Source: an uncultured Verrucomicrobiales bacterium
GTDB lineage: Bacteria > Verrucomicrobiota > Verrucomicrobiia > Verrucomicrobiales > DEV007
Length of the DNA: 24,689 bases
Reading direction: 5' to 3'
Assembly: GCA_937893785.1 (NCBI GenBank)
Contig: CALCSP010000587.1
Location: forward strand, 1 to 24,689
Below are positions 14,727 to 23,288 of the stretch, in pieces. The first letter of the stretch is position 1. The number at the start of each line of letters is the position of its first letter. Position numbers and translations under genes: made by a program. Under the pieces are notes generated by a model, which ran no database searches, was not told where the DNA came from, and was given only the letters and a program-made list of their open reading frames with translations.

Positions 14727-14768
14727 TAGTAACGGTTTTATGCGTATTTATAACGCTCTTTTATGACA
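14727..14768 (-). promoter_or_regulatory. Candidate AraC/XylR-type operator: two direct half-sites with 21-bp period
   Basis: Minus strand reads TGTCATAAAAGAGCGTTATAA|ATACGCATAAAACCGTTACTA. The first 32 nt match the element at 23257-23288 at 25/32 positions. It lies in the divergent YdjY/sulfatase intergenic region. Confidence 0.6.
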
Positions 14769-14863
14769 GGCCAATTGCAATGGTAGCTTACTGCGTTCAA
14801 CTCAGAGCCCCATAAAGTAAGCTTAAATAACCGAATAAAACGCCTTATTCACAAACTTATTAA

Positions 14864-16297
14864 ATGCACCTAAAACTCATACATCTGATTCTCCTGCTCA
14901 TAGGTTGTTCATCCGCATTACAGGCAGCAAAGCCCAATGTGCTCTTTATCGCCATTGATGATTTAAATGACTGGATCGGCGCCCTTGAAGGCCATCCCCA
15001 GGCACATACCCCACACTTGGACAAACTGGCTAAGCGTGGCGTTCTCTTTACCCGTGCATACTGCGCTGCACCCTCATGCAACCCTTCCCGGGCTGCACTG
15101 ATGACCGGTATTCTCCCTTCCACCAGCGGAGTCTACCACAATTCGCACCCGTGGCGAGTGGCGCTGCCGAAGGCAGTAACCTTACCTCAGCACTTCACTG
15201 CACATGGTTATTGGTCGGCTGGATCAGGAAAAATCTATCATGGCCGTTATCCTGATCCTGCCTCATGGCAAACCTATTTCCCTGACCAGAAAAAGAACAA
15301 GCCGGTGGATCCGTTGCCAGCAACCCGACCGGTCAACGGCATTCCACAAACAGCACATTTTGACTGGGGACCGGTTTCGAAGCCCGCCAGCGCCATGGGC
15401 GATTACCAAGTAGCTGACTGGATCATTGAGCAGTTAAATCGCGAACATGACAAGCCTTTCTTCCTGGCCTGCGGCATCTATCGCCCGCACCTGCCATGGT
15501 ATGTTCCGCGCAAATATTTTGACCTGTTCAAGGAAAGCGAAATCCAACTGCCTGCGGTCATCGAGAAGGATCTCAAGGATGTGCCAGCCGCCGGTATCAA
15601 AATGGCCAAGCCGCAAGGCGACCACGCTAAGGTCAACAAGCATCAACAGTGGAAAAAAGCCGTGCATGGTTACCTAGCTTCCGTTGCATTTGCAGACGAG
15701 CAGGTGGGGCGTGTGCTCTCAGCCCTTGAGAAAAGCCCCCATGCTGAAAATACCATCATCGTGCTTTGGACGGACCATGGGTGGCATCTGGGCGAAAAGG
15801 AGCACTGGCGAAAATTCACTTTGTGGGAACGCGCCGGCCGCACGCCGGTTATGTTTGTGGTCCCCAAGGGCATATCCGGGGCACTGACACAAGGGACACG
15901 ATCCGGGATGCGTGTGGATCAACCGGTGGGGCTAATCGATATCTATCCCACGCTCGTTGATCTCTGTGGACTGGGCGAAAACAAGGCATTGGAAGGACAA
16001 AGCCTAGTACCCTTACTGGCTGATCCAACATCAAAACGGGATCGACCGGCACTCACCACCTATGGACGTAATAACCATGCCCTGCGAACCACCCAGTGGC
16101 GCTACATCCGATATGCCGATGGATCCGAGGAACTTTATGATCACAAAAAAGATCCCAATGAATGGAGCAACCTTGCCAACAAGCCAAAATATGCGCAACT
16201 GAAGAAGGAGTTGGCCAGATGGTTTCCGAAAACAAACGCTCCCTCTGCCAAGGAATCAAAAAAAAGAAAAAGCCAAAAAAACAATAGTCGCAGTTAA
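14864..16297 (+). CDS. Secreted formylglycine-dependent (S1) sulfatase, iduronate-2-sulfatase/choline-sulfatase-like
   Basis: Signal peptide. KPNVLFIAIDDLND, CNPSR (15077-15091) in YCAAPSCNPSRAALMTG, GKIYH, PFFLACGIYRPHLPW, WTDHGWHLGEKEHWRKFTLWE, ELYDHKKDPNEWSNLA. Confidence 0.93.
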   Translation: MHLKLIHLILLLIGCSSALQAAKPNVLFIAIDDLNDWIGALEGHPQAHTPHLDKLAKRGVLFTRAYCAAPSCNPSRAALMTGILPSTSGVYHNSHPWRVALPKAVTLPQHFTAHGYWSAGSGKIYHGRYPDPASWQTYFPDQKKNKPVDPLPATRPVNGIPQTAHFDWGPVSKPASAMGDYQVADWIIEQLNREHDKPFFLACGIYRPHLPWYVPRKYFDLFKESEIQLPAVIEKDLKDVPAAGIKMAKPQGDHAKVNKHQQWKKAVHGYLASVAFADEQVGRVLSALEKSPHAENTIIVLWTDHGWHLGEKEHWRKFTLWERAGRTPVMFVVPKGISGALTQGTRSGMRVDQPVGLIDIYPTLVDLCGLGENKALEGQSLVPLLADPTSKRDRPALTTYGRNNHALRTTQWRYIRYADGSEELYDHKKDPNEWSNLANKPKYAQLKKELARWFPKTNAPSAKESKKRKSQKNNSRS

Positions 16298-16313
16298 TCA
16301 AATGGCCTATCCC

Positions 16314-16772
16314 CTATTCCTCAACAGGCTGCACTCCATTGGCATAAACCACGTTGTAGCCGCCATCCTGCGCCCCCTCCTTTGACCATCCGTCATAGGA
16401 ATCACAGGCAAGATAGAAGCGGTAAGTATTACCTTTTTGGGGCTGTGATCCATAGGAACCTCCCCCGGCCGGAACCAGTCCAAATCCTTTCCAATCCCGG
16501 TCGAAGTATCGCACATAAACCAAGCGTTCCGGACCCTTCCCCTTTTCAAGTTCCTCAACCTGCACCTCCGCCACCTTACGGATATATTCATATTTACCCT
16601 CTCGCTCGGTAAAGGAATAGATGGCCTGCACCTTGCCGACCACAACGTGTGTGGCAACTTTCTCTAGTTGCTTTTTAGTATAGGGCGCTTTCTCAGCCTG
16701 CGCCTTATGGCACAAAAAAAGGCCAGTCAATAGGACAGATAAGAGCGTTGTTTTTCGGGTTAGAAGTTTCAT
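16314..16772 (-). CDS. Small secreted hypothetical protein (possible OB/TIMP-like beta fold)
   Basis: Signal peptide ending AQA-E. The beta-rich mature part starts ATHVVVGKV...VAEVQVEELEKG. The ORF track starts at TTG 16775; the ATG at 16772 is the more likely start. The fold is an inference. Confidence 0.7.
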   Translation of the reverse strand: MKLLTRKTTLLSVLLTGLFLCHKAQAEKAPYTKKQLEKVATHVVVGKVQAIYSFTEREGKYEYIRKVAEVQVEELEKGKGPERLVYVRYFDRDWKGFGLVPAGGGSYGSQPQKGNTYRFYLACDSYDGWSKEGAQDGGYNVVYANGVQPVEE

Positions 16773-16957
16773 CAATTTGCGGGGATTTGGTATTTTATTA
16801 GGAATGATTACCTGTAATTCCTATCGGATTATCGAGATGTAAATAACAGGTGATGCACTGCTTATTATGTCACGACGAATAGCCGTCACCATTTATTAGA
16901 TTTTTTTTCACCCCGCAAGCACGCCGGCAAAAATTAATACAATCACATCTTTCATCT

Positions 16958-17281
16958 TTACGGCATCCCCCGGTCGATCCATACCTCATATCTCAGGAGA
17001 GTATTACTTTGATCAAGATAGATTAAGAGCAACACTCCAAAAAAACCAATAAGGATGGCTAAAACCGAAAGCCACTGATGAAACTGCGAGTGAGAAGATA
17101 TCAATAAAGAAATCAGGCCCATGAACCCGATGGGAACAAAGACGGTAAGGGCATGGTAGGGATTAAACCCGGTATGACCGGAATGATTGTATGCGACGTA
17201 AGCCAAAATGGCACACAGGGTAAAGAATCCGGCAGAATTACACAGAATTAAAAACCAAAAAATTCGGAGATGCTTTCCCAT
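16958..17281 (-). CDS. Small integral membrane protein (about 3 TM), unknown function
   Basis: 107 aa with three hydrophobic stretches; co-oriented with its neighbours; no competing long ORF. Confidence 0.65.
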   Translation of the reverse strand: MGKHLRIFWFLILCNSAGFFTLCAILAYVAYNHSGHTGFNPYHALTVFVPIGFMGLISLLISSHSQFHQWLSVLAILIGFFGVLLLIYLDQSNTLLRYEVWIDRGMP

Positions 17282-21986: not shown

Positions 21987-22027
21987 AAAAAAGAAGACCG
22001 GCAGAAACCCCACGAATCTACCGGTCT
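21987..22027 (-). terminator. Intrinsic terminator-like hairpin downstream of the 354-aa esterase gene
   Basis: Minus-strand RNA AGACCGGUAGA-(11-nt loop)-UCUGCCGGUCU forms an 11-bp stem with one G-U pair, followed by UCUUUUUU. The asymmetry only pairs (as G-U) on the minus strand, matching the gene orientation. Confidence 0.7.
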
Positions 22028-22123
22028 ATAATCAGGAGTGGAATCATCCGATCTTCCTGAAAATTTTTACCATACTGATCAAAATGATCCGAACCGCAGA
22101 GAAACTCGGGATTTTCCGCCAAG

Positions 22124-23188
22124 TTATTTCTGCTTCAAGAGCTCAACCATCGCCTTACCCATGGCCTCACCCACATTCATGTAGGTCTCTGCATTTCCAC
22201 CATAGTGACCACCAGAACTGCCCCCCTTGGAAAGCGGATGCGTATAAACACTGGCCACATTTCCCTTAAATTCAGAATATTTTCCGGACTTACCGTCAAC
22301 TGCTTTCATTGCATCAAGAATCTTGCCACCACCATCAGTAGCACCTTCCTTCGTCTGACCTAGCGAGGCGCAGACAAACTTCGCATTAGGGCAATCAAAT
22401 TCCTTGCGCAAGGTCTTGATGAGATGCGCCAAATTCTTTTCATAGCGACTTGAAAGTGCTGGACTGCGGCTGTCACGGTCTCCCTGCCACCAGAAAAAAC
22501 CGGCCACCTCGTATTTTTTGGCTCCCGGGTAATACTTATCGAGTTCGGAAAGGACCTGTTTGGCTCGAGCAATATCACCATCATACTGTGTGCCGGCATA
22601 CCAGCCAATCTTCTTTGGCTCCTCACCCTTTTTCCAACGCTCTGGGCTCCCTTTATAGCCAGGATGCACCCAAGTAACGCCTTTTTTGTCAGTAAACTCA
22701 AAGCTCTCGCTTCCTGGAGGAAGGAGATCCCAGCCAAGGGCACGGTTCCCAATACAACTCTTGAGAATCATTACAGGAGCATCGGTAACTTGGCCAACAT
22801 AGTGCCCGATACCGATTTCCGGTCCAATCGCCCGACCTGCTATAGTCATCCATTCGTTATTAAACTGCTTCATGCCTCCCGTCCCGCTCCCCATCACGCG
22901 GACATTGCGAACGTCCTTACGCTCAGTCCATTTGCCGGACGCATCCACGAGATAAGGATAGAGTCCTTTTTCCTTAACCGCATACTCAAGTGAACCTTCT
23001 CCTCCCTTAATCTTTCCGAAACCAAGCATATTCGACTGGCCCAGGAGGATGTAGACCTGTACCGGTTTGCTCATGTCTGCATCTTTACCGTCCGGGCGAG
23101 GCAGTTCTCCTGCCGAAAGAGTGCAATTGATTGCTGCCAGTGTAAAAACTGACAAAAGAACTTTGATAAAATGATTCAGCCTCGTCAT
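22124..23188 (-). CDS. Secreted single-domain SASA/CE6-like SGNH esterase
   Basis: Signal peptide. VQVYILLGQSNM (Ser codon 23033-23035), IGPEIGIG, PVMILKSCIGNRALGWDLLPP, AGFFWWQGDRD, GHYGGNAETY. Confidence 0.9.
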   Translation of the reverse strand: MTRLNHFIKVLLSVFTLAAINCTLSAGELPRPDGKDADMSKPVQVYILLGQSNMLGFGKIKGGEGSLEYAVKEKGLYPYLVDASGKWTERKDVRNVRVMGSGTGGMKQFNNEWMTIAGRAIGPEIGIGHYVGQVTDAPVMILKSCIGNRALGWDLLPPGSESFEFTDKKGVTWVHPGYKGSPERWKKGEEPKKIGWYAGTQYDGDIARAKQVLSELDKYYPGAKKYEVAGFFWWQGDRDSRSPALSSRYEKNLAHLIKTLRKEFDCPNAKFVCASLGQTKEGATDGGGKILDAMKAVDGKSGKYSEFKGNVASVYTHPLSKGGSSGGHYGGNAETYMNVGEAMGKAMVELLKQK

Positions 23189-23223
23189 TACTTTTTCTAT
23201 TGGTGATTCATTTATTTAAAGTC

Positions 23224-23229
23224 ATTCTA
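23224..23229 (-). promoter_or_regulatory. Possible -10 hexamer (TAGAAT) of the leftward esterase promoter
   Basis: TAGAAT on the minus strand, 35 nt upstream of ATG 23188. There is no recognisable -35; the direct-repeat element reaches that position, as in activator-dependent promoters. This is inference only. Confidence 0.35.
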
Positions 23230-23246
23230 GATATTCGGCAAAATAA

Positions 23247-23288
23247 TAGGGTATCCTTTTTGCGTATATTTAAAGCTTTTTTGCGACA
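23247..23288 (-). promoter_or_regulatory. Candidate AraC/XylR-type operator: two direct half-sites with 21-bp period
   Basis: Minus strand reads TGTCGCAAAAAAGCTTTAAAT|ATACGCAAAAAGGATACCCTA, with CGCAAAAA repeated exactly 21 bp apart. It lies between the esterase run and the regulator gene. Confidence 0.65.

Follow-up and report, generated by a model that had tools for sequence, protein, structure and literature searches.

Direct-repeat elements in divergent promoter regions point to a local regulon of a XylR-like regulator in an uncultured Verrucomicrobiales bacterium

Introduction

Do two similar direct-repeat elements, located 8.5 kb apart in the genome of an uncultured bacterium, serve as operators of a regulator encoded next to one of them? 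The question was raised by a 24,689-nt stretch of DNA from a member of the Verrucomicrobiales (lineage DEV007; GenBank contig CALCSP010000587.1), hereafter the window, which comprises the whole of contig C587 in a draft genome (G000) of 3.64 Mb and 828 contigs. A preliminary description of this DNA, made from the sequence alone, proposed that the adjacent XylR-type protein uses the element as its operator and that the element defines a single regulon. Our analysis supports an operator of this protein and one local regulon, because the element is conserved above background, is rare in the genome, is distributed together with the orthogroup of the regulator, and covaries with residues of the recognition helices that would read the DNA. 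We therefore consider it probable, on comparative grounds, that the element is read by the regulator and marks out a local regulon.

Results and discussion

A 35-bp direct-repeat element occurs in two divergent promoter regions

The same element is present, in the same orientation, in two divergent intergenic regions of the window: the YdjY/sulfatase region (region 1, copy O1) and the regulator/esterase region (region 2, copy O2; coordinates in Table 1). When recomputed, the minus-strand 32-mers 14768>14737 and 23288>23257 were identical at 25 of 32 positions without gaps, and their ends lay 66 nt (14737 vs 14671) and 69 nt (23257 vs 23188) from the ATG codons of the leftward genes, exactly as described before. 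Both regions are AT-rich, with a GC content of 34% (region 1) and 33% (region 2) compared with 49% for the window. The match is nevertheless not an effect of composition, since when both intergenic regions were dinucleotide-shuffled 500 times, no shuffled pair contained an ungapped 32-mer match above 22/32 (best match per pair: mean 19.3, standard deviation 0.9), and none reached the real value. Only four among the 7.2 million positions of the genome matched either 32-mer at 24/32 or better. The 35-bp element is real.

The element consists of two half-sites of the TTTTTGCG type, 21 bp apart, and on the plus strand each unit ends in TTTTTGCG(T/A). In O2 the plus-strand half-sites are TTTTTGCGTA and TTTTTGCGACAC, likewise 21 bp apart. 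The internal 21-bp repeat noted earlier was recovered, with the 8-mer TTTTTGCG exact at 23257 and 23278 and the CG cores of region 1 at the same distance; the half-site consensus given earlier for the minus strand is the reverse complement of the plus-strand unit. The repeats are direct and not inverted, and CG cores 21 bp apart were also found in two sites on other contigs of the genome (C378 and C695, see below) and in orthologous loci down to 40% identity (L071, L075). When 14 sites of this genome and of metagenomic orthologues were aligned, the consensus was CGC-TTTTTT-GCG-TAT-TTTTT-ACGC-TTTTTT-GCGACA. Each 21-bp unit, with the consensus aCGC-TTTTTT-GCG(A/T), thus has a T-tract flanked by two GC-rich boxes at a distance of one helical turn. 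Such a bipartite half-site is the layout expected for one AraC-type domain, whose two helix-turn-helix (HTH) motifs would read successive major grooves; the basis for expecting a two-HTH domain of this type to read paired boxes is provided by complexes of the MarA/Rob type.

Region 1 contains in addition a third conserved box, TGCGAT, which is also present upstream of the regulator orthologues of loci L055, L056 and L058. The hexamer TGTCAT, previously read as a further repeat, does recur 21 bp on, at 14726>14721, but related genomes do not keep it (it is TGTTAT in G005 and differs in G004). We rejected it as the third repeat; the adjacent TGCGAT is the conserved box, at 24 bp and not 21 bp.

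In the regulator/esterase intergenic region we also noticed two copies of TATTTAAAG, at 23213-23221 and 23267-23275, 54 bp apart, of which one lies within the operator spacer and the other near the putative -10 of the leftward gene.

The element is conserved in the genus and rare in the genome

Orthologues of the regulator were found in G003 (93% identity), in G002, G004 and G005 (about 74%) and in G008 (54%), in all cases with the element upstream of the regulator gene. The closest of these genomes, G003, is a single-cell assembly of an 'uncultured Verrucomicrobia bacterium', and the names borne by homologues put the organism of the window among marine Verrucomicrobiota (Verrucomicrobiales / Akkermansiaceae-like). 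Conservation in orthologous promoters was also seen for the region-1 version, which is present in the YdjY/sulfatase intergenic region of G002-G005. In the alignment of five genus members, 27 of the 35 columns of the region-2 element were invariant, as opposed to 37 of 109 (34%) in the flanks; in the genus alignment of region 1 the corresponding values were 22 of 35 and 40 of 157 (25%). Both sites in the window are phylogenetic footprints.

A degenerate pattern searched in 41 related genomes gave four sites in G000, two to three in each of G002-G005 and three in total in the other 35 genomes, while the reversed pattern, used as a control, gave four matches in the 41 genomes. The pattern matches in G026, in G038 and on contig G004:C81 were at the level of this control and were judged to be due to chance. 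The same genome distribution was obtained by a profile search from sequence only, which also indicated a second site in G008 (L151, G008:C40:18694-18721, 22.8 bits), on another contig, upstream of a leftward gene for a 278-aa secreted protein. G001, a member of the same genus with 93% completeness, had no site by the pattern search and no regulator at E<=1e-40.

To the genome itself we applied a 35-position weight matrix (PWM) built from ten genus sites, with the C695 and C378 sites outside the training set. The scan returned four sites, namely O2 and O1 (scores in Table 1), C695:578-612 (39.1 bits) and C378:212-246 (34.5 bits). The next best position, at 15.5 bits, lies inside a coding region and was judged spurious, and a profile match at C278:4539-4571 (21.9 bits), inside a 764-aa open reading frame (ORF), was judged a chance match. 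The single half-site TTTGCGACA occurs 32 times in the genome, compared with 31-53 occurrences for scrambled 9-mers; because this is the background frequency, we rejected the idea of a general promoter element. A known riboswitch or small RNA was ruled out as well, as the Rfam scan of the whole window gave no RNA family.

The site on C378 (contig C378:1-760, L038) belongs to the same locus as the window, since synteny with G003:C1 and G004:C52 places C378 about 4 kb past the regulator, as a continuation of the window. It is kept in G003, G004 and G005, and it lies 79 nt upstream of a leftward gene whose G003 orthologue (L145:3444-8426) encodes a 1003-aa secreted protein with TSP3 repeats and fn3. 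Behind the latter gene in G003 are two ORFs, of 158 and 217 aa, without Pfam matches, convergent with the regulator. No gene runs in the other (rightward) direction from the site on contig C378, so the element there must act on the leftward gene. We also observed that in the G003 operator of this type (L134; G003:C1 about 62946-63010) the left half-site is expanded to four tandem 10-bp units, CTGCGTCTAT.

The fourth copy, on C695, is located 80 nt upstream of a 76-aa ORF (from 690; L049) with a zinc ribbon and a transmembrane segment, behind which a second similar ORF follows. This site is kept only in G003, where one core has changed from GCG to GTG; G001, G004 and G005 lack it at the corresponding position. 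The C695 site is either a recent recruit or non-functional. The single regulon proposed in the preliminary description is supported in that both promoters of the window can be linked to one regulator (see below); it needs to be extended by at least two more sites, which lie outside the window.

The element travels with the regulator and with its recognition helices

The protein proposed to read the element has a sensor domain of the LacI/periplasmic-binding-protein (PBP) type (PF13377, Peripla_BP_3, residues 108-275, E 6e-32) followed by a double AraC HTH at residues 306-384 (PF12833, E 2.5e-19; PF00165, E 1.9e-14). The PDB entry that matches it best is 4FE4, E. coli XylR (E 6e-39), with a colinear alignment over residues 107-384. 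The label XylR-type used earlier is appropriate for the two-domain architecture, which equals that of E. coli XylR, but not for the function of a xylose regulator, as no xylose genes were found at the locus. We call the protein XylR-like in architecture and not a xylose regulator, because its operator sequence, its targets, the distances between its operators and, presumably, its ligand differ from those of E. coli XylR.

Metagenome contigs with related regulators were collected by an alignment-based search, which returned 80 loci, and by a single-protein contig search, which returned 4. In 380 kb of the loci from the alignment-based search, every matrix match of at least 10 bits, apart from two weak ones, was on the plus strand and 70-140 nt upstream of a regulator orthologue. 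The orthologues bearing the element upstream were 49-100% identical to the regulator, and the orientation of the element was constant whatever the divergent neighbour, which could be a YdjY protein (L055, L058), a CBM6 protein (L056), an ankyrin protein (L057, L074), a C1 peptidase (L059), an M24 peptidase (L060) or a SASA esterase (L063, L067, L051).

The YdjY neighbours in L055 and L058 are orthologues (64% and 67% identity) of the YdjY gene that heads operon 1 of the window, and their intergenic region shows the three-box layout of region 1. In these loci the regulator gene and the YdjY operon adjoin each other and are transcribed divergently; in the window the two are 8.5 kb apart. This gene order would tie both promoters to one regulator, and we consider it to be the strongest link between them.

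A (G/A)CGACA box was found within 160 nt upstream of 22 of the 26 homologues of about 40% identity or more, compared with 2 of 19 paralogues at 32-38% identity; the expectation was about 0.08 per sequence. The presence of the box was accompanied by differences in the DNA-reading part of the protein. After the conserved GF of HTH2, box-carrying homologues have R-N-A-D-H (R361 in 18 of 20) and the others G-T-T (G in 11 of 17), and in HTH1 residues R314 and R318 are present in 20 of 20 box-carrying homologues, as opposed to 9 and 8 of the 17 others. The same box also occurs with a different spacing: in L069, three tandem 16-bp units containing TTTCGCGACAC are located about 60-115 nt upstream of a homologue with 44% identity.

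Putative promoters lie next to the element

On the regulator side, a conserved TTGCCn hexamer is found 6-7 bp past the GCGACAC box and, 17-18 bp on, a TTnAAT-like hexamer ends 7 nt before the ATG; in the window these correspond to the putative promoter listed in Table 1. The GCGACAC box keeps a fixed distance of 44-45 nt from the regulator ATG in every orthologue with at least 65% identity (23289-23335 in the window). We saw no Shine-Dalgarno sequence, and the regulator may be translated from a leaderless mRNA, which would place the centre of the operator near -60. Towards the esterases, TTGCCG/TTGCTC is conserved 15 nt beyond the element. These promoter positions are putative.

Other readings of the element

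A different factor could bind the element, with the XylR-like gene merely adjacent to it. This could be another transcription factor or an alternative sigma factor that uses TTGCGT as -35 and GCGACA as -10, for which the fixed distance between GCGACAC and the regulator ATG would also be suitable, and the 158-aa and 217-aa ORFs without Pfam matches are encoded at the locus. However, both boxes are copies of one 8-9-mer and not two distinct elements, third boxes and tandem expansions occur, and the C378 element has no gene in the 'rightward' direction. Four sites per genome make a global factor unlikely, and domain annotation revealed no other recognisable DNA-binding protein in the locus. Moreover, the box is distributed in step with the regulator orthogroup and with the residues of its recognition helices. 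We therefore regard a different factor as an unlikely reader of the element.

Somewhat less likely still is that the site serves the regulator only for autoregulation and/or acts in repression, so that the esterase, YdjY and TSP3 operons are not co-activated as one regulon. The position of the element is indeed fixed relative to the regulator ATG and variable relative to the leftward genes, for which its orientation is also reversed. Yet O1 and the C378 site, which have no adjoining regulator gene, are conserved across the genus; the sites are upstream of the -35-like boxes and not over them; and E. coli XylR is an activator (PMC3561964). That the similarity is non-functional, left over from the duplication of a promoter segment or arisen by chance in intergenic DNA of such high AT content, is effectively refuted by the shuffling result, by the genome scan and by the conservation of the element, which in two independent promoters far exceeds that of its flanks and reaches down to orthologues with 49% identity.

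Several observations weigh against an operator of the XylR-like protein that controls a local regulon. A divergent neighbour was present for every regulator orthologue examined, so that the site might act only on the promoter of this neighbour. Relative to the leftward genes, the element has the opposite orientation to that which it has relative to the regulator gene, and among the orthologues its distance to them varies from 52 to 182 nt. The counts of boxes and recognition-helix residues are descriptive only, as related sequences are not independent, and the same applies to the related genomes, which are not independent samples. G001 lacks the whole locus, including the YdjY gene and the orthologous sulfatase, and for this reason the absence of sites in that genome does not separate the regulator from another locus-specific factor. 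A strict sigma-70 scan, run together with a terminator scan, found no passing promoter in either intergenic region. Finally, the search of RNA runs yielded one exact 247-nt contig (22428-22674, in the gene of the 354-aa SASA esterase; marine metatranscriptome X1) which carries no information about 5' ends; this is a hint of expression in situ, with DNA carry-over as a possible source.

Proposed mode of action

With the XylR-like protein as the reader, the two tandem units, together with the third box in region 1, would hold a regulator dimer. The regulator, loaded with a sugar-type ligand on its PBP-like domain, would bind to sites just upstream of weak promoters. Its action would be activating rather than repressing, as suggested by the analogy with E. 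coli XylR and by the location of the site upstream of a -35-like box. At least four transcription units would come under its control: the regulator gene itself, the operon of three esterases, the YdjY-DUF6288-esterase-PSCyt/DUF1552 operon, and a unit about 4 kb past the regulator, on C378, that would be an operon headed by the 1003-aa TSP3-repeat secreted protein. The sulfatase gene divergent from the YdjY operon is perhaps co-controlled.

Comparison with known systems

E. coli XylR, whose binding requires xylose, recognizes two sites of ~37 bp, each with two direct repeats beside the -35 of one of two divergent promoters, and it can loop the DNA between them; it acts as an activator, and the E. 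coli xyl promoters have been reported to be weak (PMC3561964). The system described here shares with it (4FE4/4FE7; IA/IF operators) the two-domain architecture and a ~35-37 bp operator of two direct repeats (PMC3561964), as well as one operator copy in either of two promoter regions that face outwards, next to weak -35 elements that are putative in the present locus. The differences are considerable. The sequence similarity of the proteins is only remote, and no xylA/B or xylFGH was found in the present locus, where the targets are SASA esterases, a sulfatase and YdjY, DUF6288 and PSCyt/DUF1552 proteins. In a comparison by eye, the CGC-T6-GCG units differ from the E. coli consensus gaAa-a-a-AAT (twice); both are A/T-rich direct repeats, but the GCG cores have no counterpart in E. 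coli. The operators here are 8.5 kb and about 4 kb apart, compared with about 360 bp, and the ligand is presumably different.

The I1-I2 site of E. coli AraC has 17-bp direct-repeat half-sites in a 21-bp register, with I2 overlapping the -35. Our element has in common with it the direct repeats at a 21-bp period and two sub-boxes about 10 bp apart in each unit. However, the sensor domain here is of the LacI/PBP type, whereas AraC has a cupin, and the proximal box does not overlap the -35-like hexamer but ends 6-8 bp short of it; nor is there evidence here for a looping site of the O2 type known from AraC.

Regulons of AraC-family sugar regulators have reportedly been reconstructed by comparative genomics in Bacteroides thetaiotaomicron. 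Our approach is similar in that the regulon is deduced from a direct-repeat motif common to the promoters of glycan operons near a local AraC-type regulator; it differs in the phylum, here Verrucomicrobiota, in the motif and in the gene content. Within the limits of the literature searched, no paper describing an operator of this kind was found for Verrucomicrobiota or Planctomycetota. Marine Verrucomicrobiota have many XylR-like regulators beside sulfatase/esterase loci, and no operator motif for these was found in the same literature.

Genes of the locus and wider implications

The features of the window are collected in Table 1.

Table 1. Coordinates of the operator copies, the regulator and the neighbouring features in the window
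Feature	Position	Strand	Description
Operator copy O2	23255..23289	.	Between regulator gene (rightward) and SASA esterase operon (leftward); PWM 54.7 bits; profile 38.1 bits, E 4e-9
Operator copy O1	14735..14769	.	Between sulfatase gene (rightward) and YdjY-DUF6288 operon (leftward); PWM 47.1 bits; profile 28.7 bits
Third conserved box TGCGAT, region 1	14717..14722	.	Core 24 bp left of middle half-site core
391-aa regulator, proposed reader of the element	23333..24508	+	LacI/PBP-type sensor domain and C-terminal AraC double HTH
Putative own promoter of regulator	23297..23325	+	TTGCCA (23297-23302), 17 nt, TTCACT (23320-23325), 7 nt before ATG
Proposed target operon 2	17713..23188	-	Three SASA-family carbohydrate esterases: 354, 477, 842 aa
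Proposed target operon 1	1..14671	-	YdjY-domain protein, DUF6288 protein, SASA esterase, two PSCyt/DUF1588 + DUF1552 pairs
Sulfatase gene, possible further O1 target	14864..16297	+	Divergent from operon 1

The annotated content of the locus comprises esterases, a sulfatase, YdjY, DUF6288 and PSCyt/DUF1552 proteins and the TSP3 protein. When the genes of the window and of the G003 locus were annotated with Pfam and NCBIfam, none was recognised as a xylose isomerase, a xylulokinase or an ABC sugar transporter.

A broader hypothesis, which is speculative and which we put forward only tentatively, is that the CGC-T6-GCG tandem operator represents the recognition code of a XylR-like orthogroup that extends across the Verrucomicrobiota, with hundreds of metagenomic members at about 40% identity or above. 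From three operators over about 15-20 kb, possibly in contact through looping, which E. coli XylR achieves over shorter distances, this orthogroup might coordinate an exported system for de-O-acetylation and desulfation, with YdjY, DUF6288 and PSCyt/DUF1552 proteins, that is directed at a marine glycan. If this were true, the ligand of the regulator would name the glycan substrate.

At the level of the locus, the supported operator allows the regulon to be reconstructed in uncultured genomes and ties together three or four transcription units, including those with domains of unknown function, while the ligand of the sensor domain would be a direct handle for identifying the glycan degraded by this machinery. 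The regulator and its proposed operator form a compact pair, suitable for testing in a heterologous host. The motif should be useful for annotating glycan-degradation loci of uncultured marine Verrucomicrobiota, and the mechanism would be conventional AraC/XylR biology.

As for the remaining part of the window, the G003 equivalent (152 aa) of the ORFs between the sulfatase gene and the gene of the 842-aa esterase has no Pfam match; in the window this segment (16300-17700) contains only small minus-strand ORFs of 104-153 aa.

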